Of a stretch of DNA of 64,000 bases, positions 12,482 through 59,601 are shown piece by piece. The DNA is from Marsupella aquatica. Taxonomy: Eukaryota; Plantae; Marchantiophyta. The stretch spans positions 310,001 through 374,000 of the forward strand of contig OZ316893.1 in the NCBI GenBank assembly GCA_973895155.1, in the 5' to 3' direction. The translations under genes were made by a program, and so were the position numbers. A model generated the notes under the pieces. That model saw only the letters and a program-made list of their open reading frames with translations. It searched no databases and was not told where the DNA came from. The first letter of the stretch is position 1; each line of letters starts with the position of its first letter.

Positions 12482-12535
12482 TATCGTTGTTATTTTCCTT
12501 TGTGAAAGGGTAATTCCATGGAAATATTTATTATC

Positions 12536-19240: not shown

Positions 19241-19708
19241 GATTCGAATTATGAACCTACTACTAGTCCACTTCACCAACCTTTACACCCTACACCATTC
19301 TTTTCTCAGCAAAGATCCCCTTTCTCTGAAGATTCTGATCCCCCCTCAACTCCAGAATACTATCCTCCCTATGATATTCCAGTCTATGACTCACCAGATC
19401 AAGGATTTGAAAGGGTTGATGCAGCTTTGCGATCCAATCTCAACCTTGTTGCAGTTGTCACTTCCTCTACCCTGACTCCTAGAAATGCTATCATCTATAA
19501 AATGGAGTCTAGAACACCTAAGCAACAGGTTTAGAAGTACGTCACCATTTGCAAAATCATCCATGCCAACACATCACCTATAAGTGAGTTATGGAGGTTT
19601 TATTATCAAACGAAAGCAGAGACTAGTTACATTTTTGACCTCAGGACAATTGGCACCTCTCGCTTGGAGTTGGCCCAATTCGATGAACATTGGACAGATA
19701 TGTTCTTC
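19241..19708 (+). pseudogene. Fragment homologous to the C-terminal half of the family-2 ORF
   Basis: Translates DSNYEPT...SEDSDPPS...QGFERVDAALRSNLNLVAVVTSS...SYIFDLRTIGTSRLELAQFDEHW, versus QGFEDVDTALRSNPDLVAVVTSS...SYIFDLRCLGTSRVEMAQFDEFW at 44065-44360. Confidence 0.85.
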
Positions 19709-22018
19709 ACATACCCTCCTCATGACCTTCCATGCAGTTTGCAATGACTTGTTGTCTTCTGAAACTAGCTCATAGACAAAGATTGTGCATAAGCCTTGAT
19801 AGAAATGGTCATATACGTGTGCAGACATAGTGCACCATCTATTGTCAAGTATGCGGTGCATGACATCAGACATCACCCAATGCTCAAGATCCCCTCCTGG
19901 CTGCATTCTTCGAACAAGGTCCACTCCTGACCCGGGACCTTCTGTACTCATTTTAAAAATGTGCGGCCGCTCATTTGTTCCCACATTATGGGCTGGGAAC
20001 AAAACACTTTGGATAAAAGGAAATGCAGTCTGCTTCCGCATCTCTAGTATCATGCTTACATCAGACGACACATGAAAGTATCTCTTGATGCTCCTGATCA
20101 TCGAGCGGAAAACAGATTCGTCGCCCAGAATAGCCAACATTTCATCAAGGTCGTTTGCCTCCTCAGTGGTGACCATTTCAGCCACTGGGTCCTCAAAAAT
20201 ATCTTTAAGTTTTTGTACTGCTTTGACCTTGATCATAGACGGCCGTGCAGTAGGACTCCTCTTCAGTTCCTCCTCCACGAGATTACGCACAAGTGATCGT
20301 TGATCTTTGTTGTGCGTGAACATTGCAGGATGGGTGTGATTTTCAACATGCATGGCAACACAAGACTTGTGACAGTAATTAAGGTCGTCCTTGGTTGGAG
20401 TGATGTAGTACATCTCACTTGGGCATCCAGCTATACACCTAGGAGGCCTCCTGCAGAAGCTACAAATTACACTTGATGGGGGAACGTCGCATCCAACAGG
20501 GAAAGGCAGCTCATTTGTGCCTGCTCGATCTCGGGTCCACTTTGCAGAATTGTGCTCTTTGCGCTCTTCAAAATTCTCACAATCCCTATGCATACAACGT
20601 AGAGAACCCAAACACTTCACAGTTTGGATCTTGTAAGAGTGACTGTTGTTGTTTAGCTTTGGGCCGATATTTGCTCCTGTCTCAATCAACCTGCTCCACA
20701 TGTAACAATCATTCTTTCGCTCCATGCCCAAAAAGAAACACCCCTTCGAGTATGGACCTGTAAAAGGTGGCAACTCAAAAACATGGTCTCCATCATACAC
20801 TTTTGGTAATCGTTGAACTCTCTCCGGCAATTTTGTGCTCAAAATCTTACGAGCAGCTTGTACACATCGAGAGGCCCCTTTCCCGTGTAGCATGGCATGA
20901 ACAACACTGACAGGGAACTCATCCTTCCATACTGAATTGCCTTCTCGAAGACCCTCTCTGAGAAGGAATGCCTTTGATCGAGGTGTCTCCTTTGGTGGAG
21001 TATAAGCAGCTCCTCGATCCTCCCAAAATTGGGATGATGTAGACTCGGGTGTATTCATCCGAGAAGGTTCACCATCTTGAAGACCCCCTCTGAGATTGAA
21101 TGCACTTGATCGAGATTTCTCTTTCATTGGTGTATCACCATCTCCAAGATCCTCCCACATTTGGAATGAATTGGACCCAGGTGTACTTGTCCGAGGAGGT
21201 TCACCATCTCGAAGACCCCCTCTGAGATTGAATGCACTTGATCGAGGTTTCTCTTTCACTGGTGTATCACCATCTCCAAGATCCTCCCACATTTGGAATG
21301 AATTAGACCTAGGTGTACTTGTCCGAGGAGGTTCACCATCTCAAAGACCCCCTCTGAGATTGAATGCACTTGATCGAGGTTTCTCCTTCACTGGTGTATC
21401 CACATCTCCAACATCTTCCCACATATGGAATGAATTTGACCGAGGTGTACTCAATCGAGAAGGTTCACCATGTCGAAGACCCCCTCTGAGATTGATTGCG
21501 CTGGGTCGAGGTGTCTCCTTCACTGGCTCATCTGCCTCTCCAACATCCTGCCACACTGGCGACGAATTTGAGTGGGGTCTACCAACTCGGTGAATGTCCT
21601 CCCAAAATTGGGACGATTTCTGACGCGGTGTATTGTTCCATAATTCACCCGGTTCATCAATTTGTGGGGAGTGCGCAAAATCTCCAAGACCCTCACTAAC
21701 ATTACATGAACTTGCTTTCTTTTTGCAGATAGTATAGGACACGCCACATTTCAGATACCACTCTCGCTCATCTCCATCGCCTTTGGATTCAGCAAAAGTG
21801 GACAGCCCATCTTCTCTCTCCTCGTAAATCATGAAATCCCCTACCTTCAAACCAAATCGGCTTGCTACTTCATGCTCCTTAGTGACTCGAACACTGTCTC
21901 CCTCAATCTGACGAAAAACAACAACATCTCCGGTTACTGATCGGATTATCACAAGAGAAGCCATGTGTCCCAAATCCACATTGGGAATGTTAGTCTCCAG
22001 GCCTTCGGCTTTATACAT
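19701..22018 (-). pseudogene. Mutator-like transposase with GCM-like zinc domain, 3' truncated
   Basis: KCLGSLRCMHRDC...CSFC...C...HVENHTHP zinc module, then WVMSDVMHR...WCTMSAHVYD...ELVSED MULE-like start; internal TGA at 21341; fused to unrelated DNA at ~19701. Confidence 0.7.
21040..21560 (-). repeat. 120-bp coding tandem repeat (40 aa, ~4.5 copies) in the transposase
   Basis: MWEDLGDGDTPVKEKPRSSAFNLRGGLRDGEPPRTSTPGSNSFQ-type unit repeated. Confidence 0.9.
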
Positions 22019-22432
22019 CAGACGTTAAAGTCTTGGTACCACTTTATGCCAATAATACCGCACTTTCAGGCTTAGAACTTGGGCGGTACATCAGACATTA
22101 AAGTACCCATACTTTACGCCAAGAATACCGTTCCGGACAACGTGCGTACCATATAACGATCGTAGAATCCGGAGCGTACATATAACAATTGTACCACAAA
22201 GAAGGTACCTATTTGCTAGCGGCCGCCAAGAAGGTACAGATTCTGCACATGCACAAGGTACATATTTGCCAGCAGCCGCCAAGAAGGTACATGCAAACTC
22301 TGGGGATGTAGTATATTCTCCAAGATTCCGTCCGGCCTTGCCTAAAACATTTCTTCTTCTTCCGTCGTGTGGCTTATAATCCCCTCTGCAAATATGCCTG
22401 ACTTGAAGGATGAATAAATAGCCTTCCGACTT

Positions 22433-23810
22433 CCTACTCGACGAGGGTCTCTGACATGCGGTCGCGCTATCTGGCGAGCCTCTTTGTGGTGGATTAGGGA
22501 CTTCCTCGGTCGTTGAGTGTCATTTACTTTTCATCCCAAGTCATTCTCGGCGGGGGTCTCCGAGATTCTGAGATGGATTCTCATAGACTTTTATCTAGAA
22601 TCCTACTTGGCGAGGGTCTCTGACATTCGGTTGCGCTATCTGGCGAGCCTTTCTGTGGTGGATTAGGGACTTCCTTGGTCGCTGAGTGTCATTTACTTTT
22701 CATCCCAAGTCATTCTCGGCGGGTGTCTCCGAGATTCTGAGATGGATTCTCATAGACTTTTATCTAGAATCCTACTCGGCGAGGGTCTCTGACATGCGGT
22801 CGCGCTATCTGGCAAGCCTCTCTGTGGTGGATTAGGGACTTCCTCGGTCGTTGAGTATCATTTACTTTTCATCCCAAGTCATTCTTGGCGGGGGTCTTCG
22901 AGTTTCTGAGATGGATTCTCATAGACTTTTATCTAGAATCCTACTTGACGAGGGTCACTGACATGCGGTCGCGCTATCTGGCGACCCTCTCTGTGGTGGA
23001 TTAGGGACTTCCTTGGTTGCTGAGTGTCATTTACTTTTCATCCCAAGTCATTCTTGGCGGGGGTCTCCAAGATTCTGAGATGGATTCTCATAGACTTTTA
23101 TCTAGAATCCTACTCGGCGAGGGTCTCTGACATGCGGTCGCGCTATCTGGCAAGCCTCTCTGTGGTGGATTAGGGACTTCCTCGGTCGCTGAGTGTCATT
23201 TACTTTTCATCCCAAGTCATTCTCGATGGGGGTCTCCAAGATTCTAAGATGGATTCTCATAGACTTTTACCTAGAATCCTACTCGGCGAGAGTCTCTGAC
23301 ATGCGGTCGTGCTATCTGGCAAGCCTCTCTGTGGTGGATTAGGGACTTCCTCGGTCGCTGAGTGTCATTTACTTTTCATCCCAAGTCATTCTCGGTGGGG
23401 GTCTCCGAGATTCTAAGATGGATTCTCATAGACTTTTACCTAGAATCCTACTCGGCGAGGGTCTCTGACATGCGGTCGCGCTATCTGGCAAGCCTCTCTG
23501 TGGTGGATTAGGGACTTCCTTGGTCGCTGAGTGTCATTTACTTTTCATCCCAAGTCATTCTCGGCGGGGGTCTCCAAGATTCTGAGATGGATTCTCATAG
23601 ACTTTTATCTAGAATCCTACTCGACGAGGGTCACTGACATGCGGTCGCGCTATCTGGCGAGCCTCTCTATGGTGGATTAGGGACTTCCTTGGTCGCTGAG
23701 TGTCATTTACTTTTCATCCCAAGTCATTCTTGGCGGGTGTCTTCGAGATTCTAAGATGGGGTCTCATAGACTTTTACCTAGAATCCTACTCGGCGAGGGT
23801 CTCTGACATT
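22433..23810. repeat. 169-bp tandem array, 8 full copies plus a partial
   Basis: Unit starts CCTACTCGGCGAGGGTCTCTGACAT at 22433, 22602, 22771, 22940, 23109, 23278, 23447, 23616, 23785. Confidence 0.97.
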
Positions 23811-24029
23811 TAGTTTCCACCCTAAATTATTCTTGGTGGGGGTCTCTGAGATGGACTCGGGTCATTTGGGCAACAGTCTTTGTACTCGGCGAGCCTCTCT
23901 GAGATTGTAGATTTGTACGGACACGCGATCCATACAGAATTACATTGTAAAAACATTGAAAAGTATTGTACGGTCAGTTTTTGCATGCACTTTTGGGTTC
24001 ATCCTTGTATTTTGGCGAGGGTCTGACAT

Positions 24030-25465
24030 CAAATGTGGGATAGAACCAATTTGGGTCCTTCATTTGAAACGGAATACCCTTAATTTCATCTCGGAGAGGG
24101 TCTCTAAGAGACACAGTGTATGTTGTAGCTAACCCTTTGAAACTATTAACAGGGTCCATAAGTGGTGTCATCTGGCCAAAGTACGCCCACGACTCCATCT
24201 CAGAGAGGGTCTCCGAGAGGCTGGGTCTCATTTGGCGACCTTTCTGACCCAATATGCGATCTGGGAGAACTGCTCTCTGGCCACTTGGGGCACACGGCTC
24301 CATCTCAGAGAGGGTCTTCGAGCAATTGGGTTGCAATCTCGCTTCCCTTTCCACCCAAGACGCGATTGACAATTTTTGCCGTCTGGCCGTTCGGGCCACA
24401 CCACTCCATCTCAGAGAGGGTCTTTGACATCGGATGTTGGATAGAACCAATTTGGGTCCTTCCTTTGAAACGGAATACCCTTAATTTCATCTCGGAGAGG
24501 GTCTCTGAGAGACACAGTGTATGTTGTAGCTAACCCTTTGAAACTGTTAACAGGGTCCACAAGTGGTGTCATCTGGCCAAAGTACGCCCACGACTCCATC
24601 TCAGAGAGGGTCTCCGAGAGGCTGGGTCTCATTTGGCGACCTTTCTGACCCAATATGCGATATGGGAGAACTGCTCTCTGGCCACTTGGGGCACACGGCT
24701 CCATCTCAGAGAGGGTCTCCGAGCGATTGGGTTGCATTGGGTTGCAACCTCGCTTCCATTTCCACCCAAGACACAATTGACAATTTTTGCCGTCTGGCCA
24801 TTCGGGCCACACCACTCCATCTCAGAGAGGGTCTCTAACATCGGATGTTGGATAGAACCAATTTGGGTCCTTCCTTTGAAACGAAATACCCTTAATTTCA
24901 TCTCGGAGAGGGTCTCTGGGAGACACAATGTATGTTGTAGCTAACCCTTTGAAATTGTTAACAGGGTCCACAAGTGGTGTCATCTGGCCAAAGTACGCCC
25001 ATGACTCCATCTCAGAGAGGGTCTCCGAGAGGCTGGGTCTCATTTGGCGACCTTTCTGACCCAATATGCTATCTGGGAGAACTGCTCTCTGGCCACTTGG
25101 GGCACATGGCTCCATCTCAGAGAGGGTCTCTGAGCGATTGGGTTGCAATCTCGCTTCCCTTTCCACCCAAGACGCGATTGACAATTTTTGCCGTCTGGCC
25201 GTTCGGGCCACACCACTCCATCTCAGAGACGGTCTCTGACATCGGATGTGGGATAGAACCAATTTGGGTCCTTCCTTTGAAACAAAATACCCTTAATTTC
25301 ATCTCGAAGAGGGTCTCTGAGAGACACAATGTATGTTGTAGCTAACCCTTTGAAACTGTTAACAGGGTCCACAAGTGGTGTCATCTGGCCAAAGTACGCC
25401 CATGACTCCATCTCAGAGAGGGTCTCCGAGAGGCTGGGTCTCATTTGGCGACCTTTTTGACCCAA
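24030..25465. repeat. ~401-bp tandem array, ~3.5 copies
   Basis: GATAGAACCAATTTGGGTCC recurs at ~24040, 24440, 24851, 25252. Confidence 0.95.
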
Positions 25466-26568
25466 GAAGCATACTTTTCTACCGTGAAGTTCGCTAGAGT
25501 GTTGGACTTTTTTCTACTTCTCATATTTTACCCTAAACCCTAAACCCTAAACATAATTGGCTGCCTTTATTAAGTCTCCTCCAACAAACCCTCCTTGATC
25601 TTGTTGACTTGTGCTCTTCCCCCTTCTCTTAACCCCAATTTCCTCTTTTAGTTAAGCCACCCAAATGATAATGCATGTGGGCAACCATTTCCTCTTTGAG
25701 CTGACGCACCGAGATGTTGACACGTCTCAGTAGGCCTCGGAATGAAATGACGGCGAGGGTCTCCTACATTCGGACTCATTTGAGTTGTAAGCCGAAGTCC
25801 CTAATTGTACCCTAAATGTACCCTAAACTCTCTCGTACTAGTGGTGGTCAGTACTCGCGTTAGCATTGTGTACTTTCTTGTTTGGGCCGTTAACATGTAC
25901 GTATCAAAGTATAGTTAGGATCTCCCGTATCTATTGCGTACTTTAGTGTTGTGCAGTACGTGCGGTACGTTATTCCTTGAAGTGGATGTCGTTCCTTCCC
26001 CGTCACTCTTCCACGGTGTGACACCTTAGGTTTGGCGCTCGTCTTTATCACTAATCCCCAGACCTTCTTACTCTGCCTCACTCTTTTGCATCCCTTACTC
26101 GTTCGTGCTCTAATCCGCGCTCTTCCTCAATCTTCGCATATTGGTCTGTGCAATCTCTCACTTCTCCGCGCTCACATCCGTGTTGTTCCTGCTCTTCTTC
26201 AGTCGTCCCACTCACGGTAAACTCTCCTGTGCAACCCTGTTATCGTGTCTACTGGATTGCGTTGGTGTTTTGAGGCAGTGAGCGTGTGGTAGCTTCTCCG
26301 TGAGCATTTAGGCAACATTTTTTTGTGAGCATTTGCGACAATGATTTGCCGTGAACGTTGGTGATTCTCTCATGTTTTTCTCTTGGCTCCCCCTTTTTCT
26401 TGATATGTCAAATCCATTTGTAGATGAATCAAATGTGTGAGAGGCTGGACCCCGCGTATCCTTGAAAACGGGCTCTCTCGGCGGGGCTCGCTGAGATCTT
26501 GTCAGGTTTATAGGTCGAGCTATTGCCGAGTAATAACTCTTTCATTTCTCATGTAATCTAAGGTCAAA

Positions 26569-27450
26569 ATGCCGAAGAGGAAAGACTCGACTGGAGCTGG
26601 ACCTGCCGACAGCCAAACTTCTCAATGGAGTAAGAAACCACGATCCAAGTCTCCTTCGCCAGTCACGTCTCGACTGACGTGCTCACAGGGTTGTCCACTT
26701 ATGGAGTCAGTCGACTCCAAGAGGAAGTTTGAGCCAAAGCAGATATCATTTGAGCCTATTGGAGCGGCGGAATTGGCTGATATTGCTGAGAAGGGAGCCT
26801 AGGAGTCTATCGTCTCCAAGTATGAGACAAAGTTTAGTAAGGATCCGCCCCGGATCCCCTTGTGCCGGCTCATGCCAATGGAGGCAGTGAGGAATCTTCA
26901 GGATGAGTCGATTGCAAAATTAAAAAAAGGATTCAAAGAGAGCGGCTATGTTGTGAAGCTCAGCGAGTTCCACATTACTGAGTTCAATGAAATTGGAGAA
27001 ATGCAGACAGTGACAGACTTCAAGCCATTTTGGGACCCTCTATGGACTCAGCTCAATGAACAATTTGAGCAAGAGTGCGATGCATTAGAGGAGTTCAAAG
27101 TCCTTAAGGACAAGATGTTTTGGGTTTTTGATGGAAACCACAGATACACAGCCTGGTCCGCAGTTGCTTCTGAGTATCCGGATCAATTTCAATACCATCC
27201 GTGCGTCAGATTCTCTCTTTTGAACGCTGGGAAGGACGGATTCAAGAAGGTTGAGCAAGCAATGCACGCTCTCAACTCGTAACTACTCTCATTCGCGTCT
27301 TTTTGCAAAATGTGATTACCCGTTTGTGTAAACCTTGTGTGCCATCCTGGAGAGCCTCTTTGAAATTGCCGCTATGAGTATTGTTTGTCATTTTCAGGAT
27401 AAGTGCGACTGTCGTGAAGACGTCCTAGTTTAATGACGCTGATCGGGTTG
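26569..27450 (+). pseudogene. 5' exons of Mutator cargo gene: ParB/Srx-like domain
   Basis: RIPLCRLMPMEAVRNLQDESIAKLKKGFKESGY...FWVFDGNHRYTAW; in-frame TAG at 26800; GT-AG intron 27279-27397; frame resumes across copy B at 46368. Confidence 0.7.
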
Positions 27451-28352
27451 TGTGGTGCGTCCCATGGCTCCCTAAACCCCAGAAACCCCCCTTCACAAGC
27501 CGATTCCCGCGGGTTTTGCGCTTGGCGAGGCCGTTTCCGCGGCTTAGCGGTATGGGACGCTGCTAACCTTCTACTACTACTATTAACATTTTACACACAT
27601 ATACTGGACAGATCCTTCATCGGGTCATGAGATACGTAGCCGGCCTAATCTAGGCCTTCCCTTGTCTTCCCCTCCGTCTTGTTAGGTATGTTTGGATTCC
27701 ACCGCCGGAATGATCCCCAATAGGCTTGGTTAAGTCGCTAAGACCTCTCTCAGCTCGACACATCCAACTCTCACTCCCCTGCTTACTTTCCTTCCTCTAC
27801 TAGTTGATGTGGGCACTCTTCACACAAGTTAATGCAACACACAAATAGCAAAATGACTCCTTTTGACTGAGTCATACCATGCACTTGCCATACAAACAGT
27901 ACATCTCATACACAAGCCCTACGAACTAAGCCGTGAGGCCAACTCTATTAAGCTCTTAGGCATGAGGAAACATGAATATACACAAGGGTCACTGTATGAC
28001 TAACCGAGAGCTTCTCTTACTACTTGATCCCAGCCTGGCTGGTGCAAACTAAAAACTTGCTAAAGAAGAGGCCCTGAGCTCCCCGCTGCCCAGGTACTTA
28101 TCCTGGTAGTGGATCCGCCTAATTCTTTGCAGCGTAAGCCTAATCTACTTAACTGGATCTACCTATGTACAGCGAGGCAGAAGTACAAGTGTTGCTCTTA
28201 CCAGTGGAACCGCAATCCCACTAAGCTAAGTGTCAGGGCCGCCTCCTGGTCATGATCCTAATCCTAAACTAAGAGATCTGAGCCCGCCCTGCCCACTCAC
28301 GCCTCCTCCCTCCACGTCCGCCCTTCCTAAAAGGAATGGCGCCCTTGCACCG

Positions 28353-31300
28353 TCACGACACCGGTGGTGGATCCTCAATGGACGCCCCCAATGCTTCCAC
28401 CTCAGCCACTGCCGTAGGTTCGTTTTCTGACAGATTACCTGCCCTTGACTGAGTCAACTCTCCATCGGCCTGACTGGGTCCACCCCCGGTAACGGCATCG
28501 GCTTCAACATCAGCCTCGGCTACGGCCTCAGCTTTGGCCACGGCCTCCCCGGCCTGCTCAAGAGGTGGATCTGGGATACCGGCCTCATTACTGAGTAGTT
28601 CGGCTTGGGCCACGCCATCCCCACCTTTGGTGATAGCGGGATCTATTGTCGTGTTCATGCCGGAGGTTGGTACCGGTTTGAGTACGGCTTGAGGGGTCGA
28701 ATAACCTCCGGACCCCAAAGGTTTCCGCTTCTTCTTCTTCACTATCTCCATAGTCGGTTCCTTTCCCTTGCCACCAACGTCCGGCACCGGGCCGTGTGTC
28801 ACGGCTGGTCCTTCGGCAATTACCACCCCGGGTAACTGGTTTGCCCCAACGGGAGATGGACCTGATGCAACTAAGCATTTAAATACTGCGGCTTGTTTCT
28901 TCAGCCGCTCTGTTTGGTTGTCGGCCCGCCGCTGTAGGTTCTCCATCTTCCTTGTGATTTCCTCCAACTCCTCCTGGGTCTCATCCAGGTCCTTACGTGC
29001 CTCCTCCAGCTCGTTTTTGGCTTCCTCCAATTCCGTGTGGGCTTCCTCCAATTCCTTCTTGGTGGTAGCCCTCTCCTCCTGGGTTGCTCTTAGCTCCTTG
29101 TCGAGCTCCGCTACAACCTCAAACTCCATGCTATTCATCTTGGCATAAGTCTGGTCGAGCTGGGCGTCCTTCTCCCGCAGGTCGGCCTTGAAGCTGGCCG
29201 TCAGGGACGCAAGCTCCTGCTGTAGCGCAATAATCCCTTGATAGGATTTCCCTAACTCGGCCTCCTTCTGCTCAAGGGCTTTGCGGATGACCTCGAGCTC
29301 TTCCTTCAGCGCCCTCTCCCTTCTCTGAGTCTCTGCCGCGACCCGGTTGTTGACTGCTATATGGGCCTCCTCTGCGTCTCTCAGCTCCTTCTTCCATTTC
29401 TCCCTGTCCTTGATTGCGCCGGCCAATTCTCCCTGGGTCTGAGTCAGTTTATCCTTGATAATCTTATTATCAGCCTGCGCGGTGTCCAACTGCCCCTGCA
29501 TGATGTTCAGCTCATGCCGCTTAATCCGCAGTTCATCTTGGGCTTTCTTGGCCGCCCTTAGATCTTCAATCTCGGCTTCCATCCTCCTAAGCCGCCGGAT
29601 GACCTCGTCCTTCTTGCTTCTCTCTAAAGCCACCGCTTCTTCTAATTGGTGCTTCTCCAACTGCTCCCTATGGAAAAAGGGTCCTACCTCCAACTCCTCC
29701 CCAAAGATGCCGAGCGCAAGTTCCCCACATATCTCACCATACTCCATGGCTCTATTTTTAGCGTAGGTGGAGTAAGTAGAAGTGATCGGCATCGCCCATC
29801 GCGGCCTCTGCTCCCAAGCCGTCTTGCGGATCTCTTCAATCGTGGCTAGAGGTTTGCTTCCTTTTTTGGTTAGCCGCCTGATGTCCTCCGGCCAATCTCC
29901 TCCTGGCAAATCCTTTTCCCTAGCCAGGGCTGCCTTTTCTGCTTCCCTAAGTCGCTCCTGAAATTCCTGCGCCGTCTACTTTATGCCGTCAAAGCTCGGG
30001 GGAGCAACATCTGGTGGGGGAGACTCGGGGCTACTCTGCTGGTTGGGGTCCCCTCGAACTACCCTTGGAAGTGTGGGGATAAACCGGCCACAGGTCCTTA
30101 CTCCTGGAACGTGATGGTCCGACCCATAGCTGGAGTTATCATGGCTGCAGTCCTCCACTGCCTCCTCCACCTCTTGGACTTCCGGCTTCTCCCTCTCCTC
30201 TTCGCCGGTAGGAGCTTCAGGCAATTCCGCCTCAAATTCAGAGCTTGAGACTCCCACGTACATTCAAACACCCGGCTTGGATTCTGGCCTGATTCTCTCC
30301 TTATTTCTGGTAAAGGGGTTTTCCCTTCTAAGTCTGCTTAGGTTGACCTCTGGGGCAGTATCCTGTACTGGTGCCGCTGCCGAAGCTAGTGCCGTCTTTT
30401 CCTTCTCCAGCATTTTCAGCAGATTTTGTATGCTTGGTTGCTGCATGGGCAAGTCTTCCTTCCTTGGCCTAAACACCTACTCAATCGTAGGGCTAACAGG
30501 TGGTTGAGGCCTCTCTGCTACCGGCCTCGGTGCTGGAGCTTCCTCGGGTGCCCTTACCTGTAGGGGAAGTACTGGGGCGAAGGGTTTTCCCTTCTAAGTC
30601 TGCTTAGGTTGACCTCTAGGGCAGTGTCCTGTACTGGTGCCACTGCCAAAGCTAGTGCCGTCTTTTCCTTCTCGAGTAATTTCAGCAGATTCTGCATGCC
30701 TGGTTGCTGCATCGGCAAGTCCTCCATCCTTGGTCTAAACACCTGCTCGATTGTAGGACTATCGGGCGGGTTGGGTTTCTCCGTTGCCGGTGTCTGCTCC
30801 GGGTCCTCCTCCGGTGCTCTTGCCGATAGGGGAAGTACTGGGGCAAAGATTTGACTTCTGGCATACCGGCACAACAGCGGCATGTGATAGCCAAGCCGGG
30901 ACACGCTTCCCACGCCGATCACCTGCTGTTCCTCCTTCAAGATCTTCTTCAGTTGGTTGAGGAGGTACCCATTGTAATCCCGGCTTGGGTCTGGCCTTTC
31001 TGCCAGGTAGACCTGAGCCTTGCCGATCTCTGCCCTCGGCAAGTTACAATGCATGGTCACCCGCAAGAAGTCGATCATCTCTCCTATGTGCGGGTTGGTG
31101 CAGGTGTTCCGGAAGAAGCCATTCTTCATTGATGGCCTGGGGAACGACCGGAACTCCTTGTCAGGCAAGGTCTTCCTGGTATCAACTTTGGTCTTATTGC
31201 CTATCGGCAAGCCAAACACTTCGGCAATCACCTTGGGAGTAAGATAGAAATCCTTCCCATATATCCTCGTGGAATTGGTCTCGGGTTCCCATGACCCCAC

Positions 31301-32201
31301 GAATTCTAATAGGTCTGAATCCGGCACCTTCGGCTTCAGCCATGGTAATCTTACAAAGGCCTCTAAGCCGGATCCGGCCATGAAGCCTTGGTACTTCTTG
31401 GTCTGCATGGCCGTAAAGCATGCATCCTCCTCCCGTGCAAAATGTAGTTGCACCTCCTCTGGTAGGGTTGCCGCCCAACCTTTCCAGGTGTCATCCCTGG
31501 TTGGAATGGCATTGATGGGATCGTCCTCCTCCTCTTCGGCTTCTCCCTACCTCCTGCTCTGCTGCTCGGCTGGCTTCTTTGGTGCCGCCGACCTCGTTCT
31601 TTTTGTCGGGGTGGCTTCATCGTTGATGGCTCCCTTCCTCTTCATTTCGGCTCCCGTGGATGTCTCTCCTAGCACGGTTGCCTTTGTCCACCCCTCCGTG
31701 CTACCCCTCAACTCCCAGGGTATGTTGTTGCAGCGTTTGATGGCTTCTCGGATGCCGACGACTCTATCTTTGCAAAACAGAAGATCGTCGAGCTGATTGG
31801 AAGTAGGAGTCCACAAGAACTCGGCCTTGATGAGTTCGCCTCCTAAGAAAGCCATCTTCTACAGCTCCCACAATCGAGCGAGCTCCTGCCGTTCTCGAGC
31901 TGCCCTTTCTAATTCTTCGTCCTCTTAAGTCTTGATGTACTTGGTTGCCCGTTCGAACAGGCATCCCCAGAAATGTGTCGCTTGATTGACGTTGCTCATA
32001 CCCTCCTTAGGTCGATCGTCGGTATCTACTCTCTCCCCGAGTGCTTGCCTAAGCAGCTGACAGTAGTTGGCCTCCCGTAGTCGTCTGCCTAGTTTTGTGC
32101 TCGCAAATGAGCCACCATTCCCTGCAAGCGCTCCTTACCCCTCTCCTCTTCCGGTTCTTCCTCCCGTTGATCCTTCCTAGCCGCCGACGCTTAGCGCGCC
32201 C
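28353..32201 (-). pseudogene. Family-1 ORF, copy B, with several stops and an internal ~270-bp duplication
   Basis: ORF pieces 31547-31855, 30554-31453, 30264-30476, 29976-30263, 28353-29909 are colinear with the copy A/C protein. Confidence 0.85.
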
Positions 32202-45381: not shown

Positions 45382-45387
45382 TATAAG
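45382..45387 (+). promoter_or_regulatory. Putative LTR TATA box (CTATAAGACCCC)
   Basis: Resembles the plant LTR CTATAAATACCCC context; lies downstream of the family-2 ORF and ~800 bp before the CA end. Confidence 0.45.
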
Positions 45388-49900: not shown

Positions 49901-51640
49901 GTTGCCGTTGTTGTTGCCGATGCCGATTTCTTTTCTTTCTCCAGTAGTTTCAGCAGACTCTGCATGCCTGGTTGCTGCATCGGCAAGTCCTCCTTCTTGG
50001 GCCTAAACACTTGCTCGATCGTAGGGCTAACAGGTGGTTGAGGCTTCTCAGCCAACGGCCTCGGCGTTGGAGCTTCCTCGGGTGCCCTTACCTGCAGGGG
50101 AAGTACTGGGGCAAAAGTCTGACCTCTGGCATACCGGCACAACAACGGCATGTGATAGCCAAGCCGCGACACGCTCCCCATGCCGATTACCTGCTGCTCC
50201 TCCTTTAAGATCTTCTTCAATTGGTTGAGGAGGTACCCGTTGTAGTCCCGGCTTGGGTCTGGCCTTTTTGCCAGATAGACCTATGCCTTGCCGATCTCTG
50301 CCCTCGGCAAGTTACAATGCATGGTCACCCGCAAGAAGTCGATCATCTCTCCTATGTGCGGGTTGGTGCAGGTGTTCCGGAAGAAGCCATTCTTCGTTGA
50401 TGGCCCGGGGAACGACCGGAACTCCTTGTCAGGCAAGGTCTTCCTGGTATCAACTTTGGTCTTATTGCCTATTGGCAAGCCAAACACTTCGGCAATTACC
50501 TTGGGAGTAAGATAGAAATCCTTCCCATATATCCTCGTGCAATTGGTCTCGGGTTCCCATGACCCCACGAATTCTAATAGGTCTGACTCCGGTACCTCCG
50601 GCTTCAGCCATGGTAATCTTACAAAGGCCTCTAAGCCGGATCCGGCCATGAAGCCTTGGTACTTCTTGGTCTGCATGGCCGTGAAGCATGCATCCTCCTC
50701 CCGTGCAAAATGTAGTTGCACCTCCACCGGTAGGGTTGCCGCCCAGCCCTTCCAGGTGTCATCCCTGGTTGGAATGGCCTTGATGGGATCGACCTCCTCC
50801 TCTTTGGCTTCTCCCTGCCTCCTGCTCTGCTGCTCGGCTGGCTTCTTTGGTGCCGCCGACCTCGTTCTTTTTGCCGGGGTGGCTTCATCGTTGACGGCTC
50901 CCTTCCTCTTCATCTCTGCTGCCGTGGAGGTTTCTCCTAGCACCGTTGCCTGGGTCCACCTTTCCGTGCTACCCTTTAATTCCCAGTGTATGTCGTTGCA
51001 GTTCTTGATGGCCTCTCGGATGCCGACGACGCTGTCTTTGCAAAACAGAAGATCGTCGAGTTGATTGGAAGTAGGCGTCCATAGGAACTCGTCCTTGATG
51101 AGTTCGCCTCCTAAGAAAGCCGTCTTCTGCAGCTCCCACAATCGAGCGAGCTCCTGCCATTCTCGAGCTGCCCTTTCTGATTCCTCGTCCTCGTAAGTCT
51201 TGATGTACTCAGTTGCCCGTTCGAACAGGCATCCCCAGAAATGTGCCGCTTGATTGACGTTGCTCATACCCTCCTTAGGTCGATCGTTGGTATCTACTCT
51301 CTCCCCGAGTGCTTGCCTAAGCAACTGACAGTAGTTGGCCTCCCGTAGTCGTCTGCCTAGTTCGTGCTCGCAAATGAGCCACCATCTCCTGCAAGCGCTC
51401 CTTACCCCTCTCCTCTGCCGGTCCTTCTTCCCGTTGATCCTTCCTAGCGGCCGACGCTTAACGCGCCCTAACCCTAATCGGGTTTTCACCCTCAGCCTTA
51501 CCTCCGGCCTCGGCCCGGGTTCCATGGTTGCCCCTAATTGTTTATATTTTCCTTGTTTTGTCCCTATACTAAGGTGTTCCTAGGATGCCTTCCTGCTTTA
51601 CCCACTTAACCGGCCGAGTGATTCCTGTCTAGGCATCACA
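46977..51640 (-). mobile_element. Family-1 TG...CA unit, copy C, full length 4,664 bp
   Basis: Ends TGTGGTGCAT (46977) and GGCATCACA (51640); left flank ATTTT has its partner as AAAAT at 59597-59601. Confidence 0.95.
47889..51525 (-). pseudogene. Family-1 ORF, copy C
   Basis: Pieces 50281-51525, 48520-50220, 47889-48395; two CAG>TAG stops and a 4-bp insertion near 48380. Confidence 0.85.
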
Positions 51641-51862: not shown

Positions 51863-54087
51863 CAGATCGATCTCATGTTAGGGGCCAAATCATTTCGACA
51901 ACCGATTCGACGGATGAACCCTAAGTATTCTTTGATGGTAAAAACTGAAATCAACAAGCTAGTAGAAGCCGGATTCATCACTCCAGTCCTACACTCAGAC
52001 TGGGTGTCTCCAATTGTGATAGTTCCCAAGAAAGCTGGACCCGATGGTAAACCAAAGATCCGGGTTTGTCAGGATTACAGGAAGTTGAATGAGGCTATGT
52101 TACAAGACCATTTTCCTTTACCCTTTACTGATATCGTACTAGACATGGTAGCTAGTCATGAACTATACTCATTCATGGATGGATACTCTGGTTATAACCA
52201 AATCAGGATTAGGCAAGAGGACCAAATCAAGACGGCCTTCATCACGGAATGGGGGATCTATGTCTTCAATCGTATGCCGTTTGGACTCTGTAACGCACCA
52301 GCAATGTTCCAACAATTAATGGTGAACATTTTCCACGACTACTTGAGAAAATTCATGGAAATCTTCATTGATGCCTTTGCAGTGTTTGGGAAGGCATCAA
52401 AACATGCTAAATACCTCAGGAAAACCTTCATGAGATGCAGAGAGGTAGGTCTCAAGTTACACCCCAATAAATGTTTCTTTGGAGTAACAGAGGGTGTGCT
52501 ACTAGGTCACAAGGTATCAAAGAAGGGCATTGAGATTGATAAGGGTAAGCTAGTAGTATGGCTAGATATCATGCAACCTAAGAACATAAAGGATGTGAGA
52601 TCCTTCTTGGGGTGCATTGGCTATTATCGCCGGTTCATCAAGGACTTTGCCAAACTAGCTTTACCATTAACCAACATGCTCAAAGCAGGTGCAGACTTTG
52701 AACCCACACCAGAACGAGTAACAGTAGTAGTAGAATTGAAGCAAATGTTAGTAGAGGCCCCAGTCATGATAGCACCAGACTGGAACAAGGATTTTCATGT
52801 CTTTGTAGATGTCTCAGGCTTCTGTATCGGCTCAGTACTAAGTCAGTTGGATGAGAAAGGAAGGGACCATCCCATATACTTTGCAAGCCGCCAACTTGCC
52901 GATGCCGAACACAATTACTCCACCACAGAAAGAGAAGCATTAGGAGTCATTTATTCCTGTAAAAAGTTTAGGCATTATTTACTGGGGTACAAGGTAATCT
53001 TTCATACCGATCATGAAAGTTTGAAGTACCTAGTAAATAAGCCGGACCTTATAGGCAGGGTAACAAGATGGATTTTGCTATTACAGGAGTTTGACTACAA
53101 GCTAAAAATCAAGCCAAGAAAGCTACACGCCAATGCCGACTTCTTTTCAAGGATCACAGGTGAACCTGCCACGGATTGCATCGATGATCGATTTCCCGAC
53201 GAGGAGCTATTCGTTATGGAAATAGCTGATACATGGTACCCTGAGATTTTACAATTTCTCAGCACATCCAGATTACAGCCAAGGCTAAACAGAGAGCAAG
53301 CTGCAGTCTTTCTACGGAAGGTCAGACAGTATCAGTGCATTAAGGGCATCCTACACAAGTATGGAATCAGCGGCACGATTCAAAGGTGTTTGGAAAAAGG
53401 AGAGGTAAGACGAGTCCTACGGGCTATGCATGGGGAGGAAGCCGGAGGACATTTTGCTCCAACAACCACATCTAAAAAGATATTAAATGCCGGTTACTGG
53501 TGGCCACCTTGCACAAGGATGTCTATCAGTTTATCAAACAATGCGACCCTTGTCAACGAGCGGGAGGACCAAGGGCGTCCACAAGACATCCACTGCACCC
53601 TATTCTACCTCTGGCACCATTTGAGAAATGGGGTATTGACTACTTGGGACCTCTGAAACCATTGACCCATCCTTGAAAAAACAAGTACATAATCCTGGCC
53701 ACGGATTATGCAACTAAGTGGGTAGAGGCCAGGCCGACAACGAAGGATGATGCAATTACTACGGCTTGATTCATGTATGAGCAGATCTTCACCAAGTATG
53801 GCGCACCCCTAGAATTAGTTAGTGATAGAGGAACCCATTTTCTGAATGATATAATTAGTCGTTTAAATGAGCAGTATTTAGTTAGACATAGGCCTACTAC
53901 TCCCTACCACCCAAAGGCAAATGGGTTGACAGAACGAGCAAATGGAATTATAGGAAAGATATTGAACAAAACCGTAGCTCAAAACAAACTCGATTGGGAT
54001 GATAAATTGTTTGCTGCTATTTTTGCTTACAATTTAGCCTATAAATCCACTACCGGTCATACACCCTTTTTCTTAACCTTTGGACAG
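51863..54087 (+). pseudogene. pol: Gypsy pol fragment (RT, RNase H, integrase)
   Basis: SPIVIVPKK, MPFGLCNAP, FIDAF (mutated DD), VFVDVSG, VSDRGTHF, NGLTER; closely related to 62760-64000. Confidence 0.93.
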
Positions 54088-54521
54088 GGAGGTACACAAC
54101 TTCATCAATTATCAGTGACTTTCATCAGTCACTGATATCAGTCTGTGCCCGAAACTCAGCGACGCCGCCGACATGGACTTAATTCACACCCACAGTCAAA
54201 CCCTATGTTGGCATCCACTCCGACATTGTTTTGGTTCAGACAATTAGTAATGTCGGCTGCCTCTCTGACCATCTTGGTGCCCTTTCTAACCATCTTGGCG
54301 CCCTCTCTGAGATATCCTTGGAGTGTTGTTCCATCTCGGCTGAGCTCGCCAAGATGAAAACATACCCAGCAACGTGTACAACATAGCATATCAAATAGGA
54401 GCCACATTAAGAACGTTTGGATGACACACTTTTTATTAAGCTTTGTACTTTACAACGATGTTGTCTATCTCAATTTTCTGAACTAAATTCCACTAGGCTG
54501 TGTCTCCATCTTCCATCCTCT

Positions 54522-55711
54522 CTACAGGGTAATTGTCTGGCAGACAAGGTCCACAACAATCTTTTGTCGCATGATGTCTATAAGTGCAGGGTCAAAGTTC
54601 AGTACGCCGCCTCCAGAAATACTCTCCATGTAGATAATGATATATACACCACAATTGTTATCATCCCCTTGACCTGGAATGTTATCTCGGTAAATGCGTG
54701 GCCATTCTAATGGACATAACAAGGTACGACCCCGCAAGATGGAGAGGTCCAAAAGAAACTGAGCTACTTTGAACACTTCTTTGCCATTCTGTGCTTTGGG
54801 CATAAGCGGATCAAGTAAATGCAGTTGCCGCAAGGCAGTATCAACCACAACTAGTACCCAGTGTTTTGGCCGGTAGACAGGGATTAAAATGTACTCGTGC
54901 TCCCACATTTGAATGCCCCGCCAATATGCCAACGCTGCGTTGAAGTTATATTCCGGAGTTGTCATCACTTGGTAAAAATGTGTTGGCAATAACATGGCCT
55001 TGGGTTTATGAAGGGTTTGTGCTCTTCATTCCAGTAAAGCAATGTAAGCATTGATGACGTCGCAAGTGATCCATTTTTTTGGCCTCAAGCATTTTAAATG
55101 TGCCCTCGTCAAGTGCACGTCCTCGATTGTCACTATGACCTCTTTTTGGTCCGCCTTGGGGTCCAATGCCTTCTTCACTATTGCCAAAAATTTGGATGGT
55201 TGCTGTTGTGTGGGCACTCCTTTGTTTGCAAGCCCCACCTCTTTCACTCCTGCCCGGGGAGTCAGCCCCTCATTCACTGGTTGCTCAGGTCTCTCCTGAG
55301 CTACAATGAAGGTAAATTCATTCAAACATTACTCTTCGGAACTGGAGCTTGATAATCTTATACTTACATGGTGAGTTTGGAGACTGTCACTTCCTACCGA
55401 GCTACTCTCATCCGATTGAGCTTCTTTTGCCCTATCATCGACAAATTTGAGAGTTTTCCTTTTTCTCTCTTGTACACAGCCAGGCACTATTTCTTCATGA
55501 TAGGTATCAGTAGCGTAGCACGGAAGGGTTAACTTCTTCGGCGAGAAATATGCCGAAGCTTCCTCCCACACGAGCTTGACAAGCCGTCTGTCCTGGCTGT
55601 CCCATTCCGCTGTAGCTGACTCGATAGTCCTATTGGGAACTGCTACTAAGTTATACTTAAATCCAATCAAATAATGTATTGCGCCCAAAATAGACGTAAA
55701 CAAGAAGGCAT
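54522..55711 (-). pseudogene. Ulp1/C48 SUMO-protease-like domain, 3' part of the Mutator cargo
   Basis: LKCLRPKKWITCDVINAYI, PTHFY, ILIPVYRPKHWVLVVVD, LLDPL, QGDDNNCGVYII (His-Asp-Cys triad present); in-frame stops at 55329 and 55026. Confidence 0.88.
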
Positions 55712-55739
55712 CTGTTGGGGAAGGTAGTCGACATGGATC

Positions 55740-56785
55740 AACGGATCTCGGAGAGGCCAGCCGAGATCACTCTTCCTCAGACGGATCTTGGAGAGGCCAG
55801 TCGAGATGACTATTCCTGAGACGAATCTCAGAGAGGCCAGCCAAGATTGACTATTCCTGAGACAGATCTTGGAGATGCCAGCCGAGATGACTTCCTGAGA
55901 TGGATCTCAGAGAGGCTAGCCGAGATGATTGTTCTTCAGATGGATCTCAAAGAGGCCAGCCGAGATTGACTCATCCTGAGACGGATCTCGGAGAGGCCAG
56001 CCGAGATGACTGTTCGGTACACGGATCTCAGAGAGGCCAGCCGAGATTGACTCTTCCTGAGACGGATCTCAGAGAGGCCAGCCGAGATTGACTCTTCCTA
56101 AGATGGATCTTGGAGAGGCCAGCCAAGATCACTCTTCCTGAGATGGATCTCGGAGAGGCCAGCCGAGATGACTATTCCTGAGACAGATCTCAGAGAGGCC
56201 AGCCGAGATTGACTCTTCCTGAGATGGATCTTGGATAGGCCAGCCAAGATCACTCTTCCTGAGACGGATCTCGGAGAGGCCAGCCGAGATGACTATTCCT
56301 GAGACGGATCTCAGAGAGGCCAGTAGAGATTGACTCTTCCTGAGACGGATCTTGGATAGGCCAGCCAAGATCACTCTTCCTGAGATGGATCTTGGAGAGG
56401 CCAGTCGAGATGACTATTCCTGAGACGGATCTCAGAGAGGCCAGCCGAGATTAACTCTTCCTGAGACGGATCTTGGAGAGGCCAGCCGAGATCACTCTTC
56501 CTGAGATGGATCTCGGAGAGGCCAGCCGAGATGACTATTCCTGAGACGGATCTCAGAGAGGCCAGCCGAGATTGACTCTTCCTGAGACGGATCTTGGATA
56601 GGCCAGCCAAGATCACTCTTCCTGAGACGGATCTCGAAGAGGCCAACCGAGATGACTATTCCTGAGACGGATCTTAGAGAGGCCAGTCGAGATTAACTCT
56701 TCCTGAGACGGATCTTGGAGAGGCCAGCCGAGATCACTCTTCCTCAGACGGATCTTGGAGAGGCCCGCCAAGATGACTCTTCCTG
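55740..56785. repeat. ~40-bp tandem array (~26 copies, ~121-bp higher-order unit), apparently intronic
   Basis: Unit GAGACGGATCTCGGAGAGGCCAGCCGAGAT(C/T/G)ACT(C/A)TTCCT; lies between a GTAAGT donor at ~57006 and a CAG acceptor at ~55712 on the minus strand. Confidence 0.95.
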
Positions 56786-57028
56786 AGTTGCATGTAGAGG
56801 AATGAATCTTGGCGAGGTCCGCCAACATGCATCTCAAGTTAGGACTTGCCCTCGCTTGTAGAGGAGGCCAGACACTATGAATGTCAGCGAGGTCAGCCGA
56901 CATGCATACATATCGGCGAGGCCGCTGACTTGTATCCCTCTATTGTCAACCATTGCGACGAGCAAGCAAATATGAAATGAACAATGTCAAACGCCAAAAA
57001 ACTTACATGTTGTTGGGAAAACTGCCGG

Positions 57029-58616
57029 CTATTTCTTCTTGCGCTTTTCTGGATTGGCTTTTGAACGGACCACCTCTTCCTCCTCCGGGGAGATCACTCC
57101 AACCAGTTGTGCCAATTGGTCTTGCGCACAAGTTCCAAAGTGAGGATAGGATTCAGTCCCAAACACCATCCGCCCGCAATTTTCACCCGCCTTGAATATT
57201 GCCCCAAACTGTGCGTTGAAAGTGAGGATAGTTGCCCCAGGGTGTGTTGTATATTCGATGATACATTGGAGCGTTGCTGGCGACAAAGTGCCCGCAAAAG
57301 GATCGTTAACCTGATTCTTCTTGGATGTATAGTTCGTTAGCCCATTCCTACTCTTCATATCGAGCTCTGCACTAATTGGTGCCACATCGTCCTTTGGGCA
57401 TATCTCTACAACAGATTGGTCTAGCTTGAGATATTCGCTCTGGATCGGCCAAACATATTCAGAGGTCAGACTTCCTCAGTTTAGGATAGTAAGTCATTGG
57501 AATAAAAAATAAATGAAGAAGTAGGTAATTGATGGGACTTACTCGCTTCCCAGTCCTACCATCGTAGGTGGGTGTGTCGTTCCAGATAAAGAAGCTTTCT
57601 TTCAACCCCCAGTTGGTATTCTCGTAAACTAATGCATCATAAATGCAAGTTGAGTGCCGAAGCGAACCACTGTGCACGATGGCAAACAGTCCTTCGGAAT
57701 CAAGGACATCTTGAGCAAACTCCTGAACCCGGTTCAAGTTGTCCTCCCGGAACAAATTCCACAACGGGGTGGACTTACCCTCAACCATATGCGTGTCTGT
57801 TCCCATATGTATCAGAATTAAATCTGCACCAGTCTTCACTCGCTTCCCCCCTTTTCTCCAAGCATTTTGACGCAAACCTTCCCGCAATAGCTTTCTGCAC
57901 CATGAGATCAATTTACTAACTACAGGAGGTTTGGTACCTTCTTTAGCCGCATCAAAAAAAGTTGTAAATAGATTTGGAGACCACCTAAAATACATATGTC
58001 TGCTCTGGGAAGACATGGTATTGGCATAAGGACGCCTTAATCCTTCCAGTTCTGTATTATCCTCTTCTCCAAGGGCCTCTTCATCCTCCTCATTTTCCAA
58101 TGTGGGGTCAGGTTGGATGGTTGTGGGCGGAACCTCTCCAGTGCCGGGCGGGGGAGGCGACTCAGTGGGGGAAGGAAGAGGAGGAAATTCCTCGTCACAT
58201 GCTTTGCTCGGGCTCCCTTTGGGAGCTTTGGGTCGCCTAGTTTGCTTTCTTTTTAAGGCCTTTTCCTTTTGCCGTGACAGTAATGGTGGCCGGTAAGGCA
58301 CAGGAGAGATATCAGACAAGCGCCCTTCGTCTCTGAATTGTTCTTTGTCCTCTTCCTCTCGCTCCTCTTCCTCTCGCTCACCCACATCATCCTCACCTTG
58401 CTGCTCGTCAGCCAATTCATCTTGTACTTCAGGAGCCTCATGCGGAGGCAAGTCAAATTCTTGCAGTGGAGCCTCGTCTGGACCCAACTCAACTATTGGT
58501 TGTTTATCCTTGTGCCCTGGACCCTGCGAAACCCCTGGACCGTCCTCAACTGCTGCCTTTGTAGCCGGCTCTACACCCTTGCTCTTGATAGAATCAGGTT
58601 CCGTTTGGATCTCTGC
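57029..58616 (-). pseudogene. Acidic/Pro-rich linker plus degenerate beta-class N4C/N6A DNA methyltransferase-like domain
   Basis: ADLILIH...VQEFAQDVLDSEGLFAIV...FFIWND, then PATLQCIIEYTTHPGATILTFNAQFGAIFKAGENCGRMVFGTE, which parallels P..L...I...T.PGD.VLDPFAGSGT...A...GR..IG.E; DPPY and FxGxG are not conserved. Confidence 0.6.
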
Positions 58617-58664
58617 ATGACTTGCATAGGATGCAAATTGATGAGCTTCATGATGGCAACTACA

Positions 58665-58885
58665 TCTCGGCGAGCCTTGCCAAGATCGGGTTCATTATAT
58701 GCAAGCAACTTATTACTCAACTAATACTTCATCTCGGCGAGCCTCGCCGACATCTGGACTGGACCAGACACTTAATCTCGGAGAGCCTTGCCAACATCTG
58801 GACTAGACCAGACACTTAATCTCGGAGAGCCTCGCCAACATATGGACTGGACCAGACACTTAATCTCGACGAGCCTCGCCAACCC
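58665..58885. repeat. ~42-bp tandem array (~4 copies plus one isolated motif)
   Basis: TAATCTCGGAGAGCCTCGCCAACATCTGGACTGGACCAGACACT-type unit. Confidence 0.9.
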
Positions 58886-59152
58886 AGCCAAGGTTTTTTC
58901 CAATGCAAGCCACCACCTGATTCGAAAGGAATTGAGTAATACCTGATGGGGTCTTTGTTGGAGTGCTTATAGAATCTGACTGACTGGCCTCGGCGGATTG
59001 TTCCTTGTCGACCTTCTTCTCGCCTCCTTCCTTTCAAGCCTTTTTCCATCATAGGCTGGGTCCATTGGGATTATGGCCTTCAACACTATTGCCTGGGGCA
59101 TAGAGTCCGTCAATTGTCGCAGCTTGGATATATCGTAGTAATTTGTAGGCTC

Positions 59153-59601
59153 CTATTGGTCCTTCAGCTTCATTGCACACTCCTTCTCAGCATCATCGAT
59201 AAAAGTATTCCAGTCACGGTATTCCATATACCATGGGTAGTTTTGACGTTCCCAATCGCAGACTACTCTGCCATTAGGAATTTGGCCATCACATGGATAC
59301 ATGCTAAGGCTCCCTTTCGGCTCCATCCAAGATGTCAGTGCCCATGGCAGCTCTTTCAATACAGATGCATTCATGTTCTCCTGATTGATTAGAAATCTTG
59401 TCACACACCTCTTTGTTCGCTTTTTCCACAATTCTTTTAACAGGACCGTGGCCTTTCCGTCAATCCAAATTTCCCCGCCTAGTTTCAGTGATTTCTCTTG
59501 CACATAAGCTCGATAAAGCCTTCTGTATAGCTCTGCAAATTCCTCCTCTATCCCAGAAAACTCACGGTACATCTGTCTTTGGTAGGCCTTTGCAGCAAAA
59601 T
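59153..59601 (-). pseudogene. Continuation of the Mutator cargo gene after the inversion breakpoint
   Basis: Reverse complement from 59601 reads ATTTT GCT GCA AAG GCC TAC, in frame with ...ACC GAT TTT ending at 46976. Confidence 0.85.

Follow-up and report, generated by a model that had tools for sequence, protein, structure and literature searches.

Exon structure of the cargo gene

The window analysed here is a stretch of 64,000 nucleotides from the liverwort Marsupella aquatica (assembly GCA_973895155.1, contig OZ316893.1, positions 310,001 to 374,000; coordinates below count from its first letter). It contains a broken copy of a repeated mobile element, likely a Mutator-like DNA transposon, with two divergent genes: a transposase-like gene and a spliced cargo gene. 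The cargo gene encodes a ParB/Srx-fold domain, a helical region and a beta-class methylase-like domain, and is accompanied by a Ulp1-type protease exon. An imperfect palindrome, described below, recurs in both genes and in the spacer between them.

The first cargo exon (26569..27280, plus strand) encodes a basic N-terminus and the ParB/Srx-fold domain, with its VR, DGNHR and terminal N, and contains a stop private to this copy (26800-26802). It is followed by intron 1 (27281..27397, plus strand), which is found at the same position in four related metagenome loci (L001-L004). The second exon is now in three pieces. The first (27398..27450, plus strand) ends in the target-site duplication (TSD) GGTTG. 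The middle piece (46363..46976, plus strand) encodes a conserved helical region that matches Riccia proteins with an E-value of about 1e-22 (tblastn), and has one stop and a frame change in this copy. The last piece (58943..59601, minus strand) is inverted and encodes helical region and a charged linker. Further along the minus strand, an intron with a 44-bp array (58651..58942) precedes two exons (57007..58650) for an acidic/proline linker and the beta-class amino-methylase-like domain. Then come an intron with a 40/121-bp array (55713..57006), a tail exon (55329..55712) homologous to the C-terminal tail of Riccia and Adiantum proteins, and the Ulp1/C48 protease exon (54522..55300).

Two insertions separate the pieces of exon 2. 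Insertion B (27451..46362) is a long terminal repeat (LTR)-type copy with a nested CACTA element and other DNA, all foreign to the element; it starts with TG, ends with CA and is flanked on both sides by GGTTG, a 5-bp target duplication. Insertion C (46977..51640, plus strand) is a 4.66-kb TG..CA solo-LTR-like copy. Its inverted partner, copy D (59602-61853), is 98.4% alike over 1 kb and marks the boundary of the inversion. The ATTTT left of C, at 46972-46976, has its partner at 59597-59601 on the minus strand, beside copy D; partners separated in this way would be the expected product of recombination between C and D. The reading frame is unbroken across both insertion joints. The uninterrupted form exists as DNA: in a public contig of run X3, 46976 is followed by 59596, the two sides lying on opposite strands and sharing five letters.

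The nearest named homologs come from Riccia sorocarpa, a liverwort, and from Adiantum ferns, and the genes have GT-AG introns; both features point to a non-seed land plant as the likely host. The Riccia protein P0153 (1207 residues) aligns in order with 26788-27279, 46355-46747, 46770-46967, 59515-59141 and 57926-57483 (tblastn), the last methylase exon matches Riccia P0154 (E 1e-8), and the gene is colinear with Riccia and Adiantum proteins of about 1,200 residues. These homologs were found by the full HMMER search; word-index protein searches with single window pieces gave no match. The initial annotation, made from the sequence without database searches, had joined the pieces into one colinear coding unit. 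The frame at both TSD joints and the alignment with P0153 bear out the colinearity; the unit is a multi-exon gene with several lesions, not one open frame.

Other copies have a G at 26801 and a canonical donor base at 27283, and, taking 57031 and 55303 along with these two positions, they have sense codons or better splice sites at all four; these are among the best-supported 40 differences of each comparison (one comparison has about 1600 in total). The stop at 57029-57031, which had been considered as a gene boundary, is a lysine codon in nearly all the read depth of two runs, with a splice donor 23 bases beyond. It is private to this copy and is rejected as a boundary.

When the exons of the relatives L001 and L002 are compared with the window, the proportion of synonymous differences (pS) is 0.81-0.84, near saturation, and that of non-synonymous differences (pN) is 0.28. 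Fifteen liverwort and fern proteins carry the ParB region and the methylase motif IV region together, and in Riccia the cargo homologs are dispersed over many contigs. The cargo is a conserved ParB-fold/methylase-fold gene under purifying selection.

A palindrome repeated along the element

The palindrome is 23 bp long, with the consensus ATCTCGGCGAG-N-CTCGCCGAGAT and two CG per half. At up to seven mismatches it has 74 sites in the 13.9 kb of the element and one in the other 50 kb of the window; a Markov null gave a mean of 0.5 and a maximum of 3 (200 sequences). Ten sites have at most three mismatches, a number reached by none of 100 shuffles. Five sites are in the coding repeat of the transposase-like gene and 34 in the divergent spacer (22025..26568), which contains tandem arrays with units of 169 bp (8.2 copies) and 401 bp (3.6 copies). 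Three cargo introns contain one (intron 1, at 27344), five (the 44-bp array intron, including the best site, at 58731-58753) and 28 (the 40/121-bp array intron), and a single site at 54333 lies near the right end of the element. In all, 69 of the 74 sites are non-coding, and the cargo exons hold none.

Many sites are array copies, and their flanks represent 17 distinct contexts at 60% identity (14 at 50%). Among 20 representatives the core is 72% alike, a value inflated by selection on the motif, and the flanks 26-27%. The motif is also present in intron 1 of two relatives: L001 (52% protein identity) has two copies at three mismatches (0 of 3000 shuffles) and L002 (56%) has one at six mismatches (9 of 3000 shuffles). 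Sixteen single matches in prokaryote genomes were taken as chance; their contigs are rich in GC (64-76%), and no convincing gene of the family lies close by. The palindrome, absent from the initial annotation, is a candidate site for the loading of the cargo protein on its own DNA that the annotation had proposed.

These patterns could also have arisen differently, if the element had captured the cargo as a neutral passenger and the turnover of tandem repeats had produced the palindrome as a by-product. The pseudogenised state of this copy and the many within-array sites fit such an origin. It does not sit well with a pN far below pS, with an architecture kept in liverwort and fern proteins, or with a motif found in 17 unrelated flank contexts and kept between diverged elements; the neutral origin is largely disfavoured, and we give it hardly any probability.

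Domains of the cargo protein

The ParB exon has 228 homologous proteins at E-values up to 0.001 (HMMER). An AlphaFold (AF2) model of 26803-27279 has a pLDDT of 95.5. Its top Foldseek matches are ParB-CDP (E 0.022, probability 1.0), Noc, KorB and sulfiredoxin, none with E below 0.001, and 12 of the 13 VIA rows belong to the ParB/Srx superfamily (best Z 7.2, rmsd 3.2, 95 aligned). Across the two methods the matched folds are ParB, Noc, KorB, PadC, Srx and SerK. The pocket residues are well kept among the homologs: Arg30 in 80 of 87, Gly111 in 85 of 90, Asn112 in 89 of 90, His113 in 84 of 90, Arg114 in 77 of 90 and Asn158 in 62 of 71. With these structural matches and the conserved pocket, the ParB/Srx-like domain of the initial annotation is supported.

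When profiles of the ParB alignment and of the full-family alignment were searched against the PDB, nothing significant came back, and hhalign against DGQHR proteins matched the G-x-x-R stretch alone. Among viral contigs, nothing related to the ParB exon, to the transposase or to the palindrome turned up. The ParB-exon profile matched none of 12 prokaryote genomes, a search that is uninformative for want of a positive control. In the ESM Atlas, 26803-27279 leads to a fungal cluster in which 31% of the members carry DUF3723, at 0.93. DUF3723 is presumably a Starship accessory gene; no paper pairing both terms was found. Run X5, from a different organism, contains abundant diverged relatives of 19623-21035 (transposase core) and 26688-27158 (ParB core), with almost nothing between them.

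The methylase exon of the window matches N6_N4_Mtase faintly (E 0.077), and M.RsrI and CcrM weakly; its homolog P0158 exceeds the Pfam cut-off for N6_N4_Mtase. The fold was modelled on Riccia P0154, not on the split exons of the window. As this model is poor (mean pLDDT 43, from an alignment of six), its Foldseek ranking alone was used, in which CcrM (E 6.8e-5), M.BceJIV and M1.HpyAVI come first. The DNA methylase of a Vibrio phage can be aligned along the entire domain, its DIPYG falling on the DMPSG of the family (D-x-P-x-G), and motif IV comes before motif I, as in the beta class. For the N-terminal half, nothing useful emerged from the ESM Atlas. The ranking of the model and these alignments support a beta-class N6/N4 methylase fold.

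Neither a catalytic (D/N/S)-P-P-(Y/F) nor a D-x-P-Y-G is present in the methylase domain of the window. The motif IV position reads HMGTD, with neither the Asp nor the Pro of the motif, and the motif I position reads TFNAQFG, which is degenerate. Among 29 homologs with a recognisable motif IV, the aromatic residue is kept in four, all from Adiantum, as DVPFG or DLPFG, and in none of the 23 from Riccia. At motif I, DFAGGWGA is common to 10 proteins, and both the Riccia DFAGGWG and the fern-type MxGCG are plausible S-adenosylmethionine (SAM)-binding sequences. A methylase-like domain with degenerate catalytic motifs, as first annotated, agrees with the CcrM-type match, with HMGTD and TFNAQFG and with the loss of the aromatic in 25 of the 29. 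Likewise, the ParB-fold and beta-class fold matches uphold the view of the cargo as a prokaryote-type ParB and methylase module.

The cargo might nevertheless be a catalytically active methylase of N4-cytosine or N6-adenine and place a self mark on the palindrome or close to it; its degenerate motifs would then reflect decay of this copy or a variant active site. The beta-class fold, the phage DIPYG aligned with the family D-x-P-x-G, the aromatic kept in Adiantum, the DFAGGWGA proteins and the two CG in each palindrome half are all compatible with a writer. A self mark is predicted for algal relatives, and bacterial-origin writers of N4-methylcytosine work in Marchantia and rotifers, according to the consulted parts of the reports (10.1101/2021.02.12.428880, PMC8885841). 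With the Asp and Pro of motif IV absent from the window, motif I degenerate and the stacking aromatic missing in all 23 Riccia proteins, we consider an active enzyme unlikely.

The protease exon matches Peptidase_C48 with an E-value of 1.3e-10, over the cut-off, and has the His-Asp-Cys triad and the oxyanion Gln, as expected from the initial annotation; it contains one stop in this copy (55026-55028). The annotated order of domains, from ParB/Srx through the helical region and linker to the beta-class methylase fold and Ulp1 with its triad, is matched by the colinearity with Riccia and Adiantum and by the fold and profile results. The donor at 57006 is of phase 1 and is compatible with acceptors of the same phase that lead into the tail exon at 55711 or 55642. 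This exon ranks first of 1258 open reading frames (ORFs) of the window by the hidden Markov model of the tail (E 0.014). It holds both a stop that looks ancestral (55329-55331) and, at 55367, a donor of phase 0 compatible with an acceptor at 55295 that leads into the Ulp1 frame. There is no in-frame ATG for the Ulp1 frame in 55029-55328. Judged from these splice sites, Ulp1 is probably, though not strongly so, fused to the cargo transcript, perhaps as an alternative splice. The gene model of Adiantum P0065 has a ParB-methylase remnant joined to a NIF/FCP1 phosphatase-like domain (E 2.4e-12), which is either a lineage-specific add-on like Ulp1 or a gene-model fusion.

The transposase-like gene and the extent of the element

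The transposase-like gene is represented by its 5' two thirds (19701..22024, minus strand), which comprise a coding repeat of 132 bp and a GCM-like region rich in Cys and His, and in which a DDE-like core begins. In this copy it is cut at 19700 and has one internal stop at 21341-21343. The ORF, in which only part of the core is present, has no match in Pfam, NCBIfam, PHROGs or the PDB. From its motifs we take it to resemble GCM-type Mutator/MULE transposases, a likeness that has no library match; it contains a Cys-rich stretch ending in HxH, again with no profile match. A WRKY-GCM1-type zinc finger has been linked to MULE transposases (PMC1702500, as far as consulted).

Cover is continuous over 19700-27450 in runs X1, X2 and X3, with a step in X3 at 19700 from 731 to 6674, values of read depth that are not a copy number. 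The transposase-like frame goes on beyond the cut at 19700, where the left part of the element ends, in loose ends of X2 and X3. We place the transposase-like gene and the cargo gene in one element because both genes contain the palindrome, as does the element sequence on either side of the insertions, and because the cover is continuous in the three runs, with the X3 step at 19700. The initial annotation described the cargo as divergent from a GCM-like/MULE transposase; the linkage holds, through the shared palindrome, the continuous cover and the continuation of the transposase in other copies, and the MULE assignment has no profile match.

Alternatively, the two genes could belong to separate adjoining repeats, or the host could be of a superfamily other than Mutator. 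The missing profile match would fit either case, as would the missing left end, terminal inverted repeat (TIR) pair and TSD, and the algal examples are Sola1 and other superfamilies. This is quite improbable, given that one palindrome marks the transposase gene, the spacer, the cargo introns and the right end, and not the neighbours, that three runs cover 19700-27450 without a gap, with the X3 step from 731 to 6674, and that the divergent layout is like the opposite-strand arrangement of the algal element. A Mutator-like DNA transposon, repeated and present here as a broken copy, is the likely host.

Beyond the Ulp1 exon lie a 3' region and the probable right terminus (54087..54521, minus strand), with a G-rich end at 54087 where the element interrupts a gypsy integrase; the gypsy sequence runs on as a loose end in X3. 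A partner for this end, as a TIR pair, was sought within the window and none was found, the left end being lost. The element accounts for 13,869 bp of the 40-kb span, and about 26 kb is nested retroelement or CACTA DNA. The 40-kb 'giant' element of the initial annotation is therefore rejected: about 14 kb is present, and the intact element probably measures 15-16 kb.

Neighbouring repeats

Nested repeats fill the window, including Ty3/gypsy and copia pieces, a CACTA element, a kinase gene and tandem arrays. An LTR-type unit of 4.7 kb has four copies. This 4.66-kb TG..CA unit, at 7318-11551, 27451-32202/46180-46362, 46977-51640 and 59602-61853, has 5-bp TSDs and behaves like a solo LTR, though a very large one, from the local gypsy family; it contains an antisense ORF of 871 residues with no Pfam match. 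Nested in insertion B is a CACTA/EnSpm element (34824-41998) with Transposase_21, DUF4218 and DUF4216. Directly upstream and on the same strand, a SET-domain ORF (38260-38931, E 1.9e-5) is a possible histone-methylase cargo, and telomere-like CCCTAAA-rich repeats occur at 39850-40472.

To the left of the element, a fungal-type protein kinase ORF (15664-17235, minus strand; Pkinase_fungal, E 4e-7) lies in repeated sequence where three runs show indel variants and a high summed depth; it is likely the cargo of another mobile element adjoining the cut at 19700. The left neighbour at the transposase break is 19326-19686, which together with 43991-44351 forms two pieces (69% alike) of another repeat with a short ORF. 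A copia gag-pol fragment at 11795-13725 (minus strand) and a frameshifted gypsy gag-pol at 1136-7127 (plus strand) are ordinary retroelement context.

Proposed role of the cargo protein

Palindromic sequence is characteristic of sites for dimeric binders, as it is of parS. On the patterns described above, we put at about even the prospects that the cargo protein binds the palindrome and protects its own element from silencing. The protein would dimerise via a nucleotide-binding ParB domain and load at the palindromes in the way that ParB loads at parS. In this lineage the methylase domain would be a DNA- or SAM-binding pseudo-enzyme, not a writer, and Ulp1, probably spliced onto the same transcript, would de-SUMOylate chromatin or silencing factors on the loaded element. 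The outcome would be a shielding of the element from host silencing, as an independent, prokaryote-derived counterpart of VANC/KIU anti-silencing. In its fullest form this would be a transposon-run parS-ParB system, in which a nucleotide-gated clamp loads at the amplified palindromes, spreads, and brings with it a pseudo-methylase and a SUMO protease to remove or block host silencing; such a complete system is a speculative and rather doubtful extension.

Several observations weigh against a palindrome-binding, protective cargo. No helix-turn-helix or other DNA-binding domain was recognised: hhalign against 10 bacterial ParBs matched the GNHR/GERR stretch alone, with a probability below 1%. 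The GNHR motif is closer to DGQHR-type proteins than to canonical ParB CTPases, and some phage ParBs that activate DNA-modifying enzymes have no DNA-binding domain and dispensable NTP residues (PMC13229309, in the text consulted). The more distant relatives L003 (38%) and L004 (31%) have no palindrome in 1.2-1.8 kb of sequence. If left unspliced, the tail ends like the Riccia proteins, and Ulp1 may then be a separate or alternative product; no C48 family is on record in 27 methylase-domain homologs, and none was found in the 26 scanned. Finally, the five palindromes in the transposase ORF and the one near the right end would also fit a transposase site.

DNA transposases often bind repeated motifs of their own element, and the palindrome could be a site for the transposase or for a host factor, the cargo having another role, for example nucleotide-sensing or enzyme-activating. 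The last copy is about 250 bp from the right end, the cargo has no helix-turn-helix that we could find, and ParB/Srx folds have many non-clamp functions. Yet the spacer and three cargo introns contain most copies, kilobases away from the end, and the motif is kept in a cargo intron of diverged relatives, so that such a site seems to us an unlikely explanation.

Relation to known systems

A ParB-methylase accessory gene in transposons has already been published in algae, which the initial annotation missed. In Ectocarpus, Sola1-1_Ec32 carries a gene for a 1104-residue protein with ParB-like and N4/N6 methylase domains opposite its transposase, and similar proteins occur in red and green algal transposons, where they are proposed to bind or modify their own element (PMC12477816, as far as its text was available). 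The window cargo shares with this algal cargo the two domains, a similar size (1104 against about 1200 residues in Riccia), the strand opposite to the transposase or transposase-like gene and the proposed role on the own element. By description, it differs in coming from a land plant, in a MULE-like rather than Sola1 appearance of its host, and in its degenerate motif IV, Ulp1 and 23-bp palindrome as candidate target. Fusions of ParB-HTH and methylase are described in chlorophytes, and inactive methylases in DIRS1 elements (PMC4738411, in part).

The Ulp1-bearing MULEs of angiosperms, VANDAL with VANC and KAONASHI with KIU, offer another comparison (PMC5735166, PMC10398659, PMC13317346; consulted sections). 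The motifs targeted by VANC are short and have been amplified within tandem repeats of non-coding DNA (PMC5735166), and a target-type motif with this sequence pattern is found in the window. The window differs from VANC/KIU in its prokaryote-type folds, in a 23-bp palindrome as opposed to an 8-9-bp motif, and in that this palindrome is kept, not fast-diverging, among the nearer relatives; DUF287 and DUF1985, the VANC/KIU domains, have no Pfam match in the window pieces or the homologs.

With the bacterial ParB, Noc and KorB clamps, and with PadC, SerK, SbnI, SspE and DndB, the cargo shares the N-terminal fold and the R..GxxR..N pocket, and bacterial parS sites are clustered and palindromic, as in the window element. 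Unlike bacterial ParB, it has GNHR instead of GERR and is eukaryotic, spliced and transposon-borne. The methylase domain has its fold and motif order in common with CcrM, M.BceJIV, M1.HpyAVI, M.RsrI, phage methylases, rotifer N4CMT and Marchantia DN4MT1. Motif IV is D-x-P-[TSFI]-G in the relatives, HMGTD in the window and TSPPY in MpDN4MT1; identity with MpDN4MT1, which has this TSPPY and no extra domains, was rejected. The window-type cargo is multi-copy and dispersed, whereas the beta-class comparators include host genes.

What is new is the land-plant lineage, the degenerate catalytic motif, Ulp1 and the imperfect 23-bp palindrome. The consulted parts of the literature contained no land-plant case, Ulp1 version or palindromic target; Petroll 2025 and Iyer 2011 may describe related elements or motifs. 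As set out in the accessible text of PMC12477816, the published idea of binding to the own transposon comes with no named target site or land-plant example. The palindrome makes that idea directly testable, and the homologs in Riccia and Adiantum add to its testability. Loading at the palindromes could explain how anti-silencing spreads over whole elements, a point left open for VANC (PMC10398659, in the part consulted), and could yield a sequence-specific epigenome tool. If a transposon-run parS-ParB system does operate here, it would have turned phage parts into a device against silencing that is convergent with VANC/KIU and common to liverwort and fern transposons.

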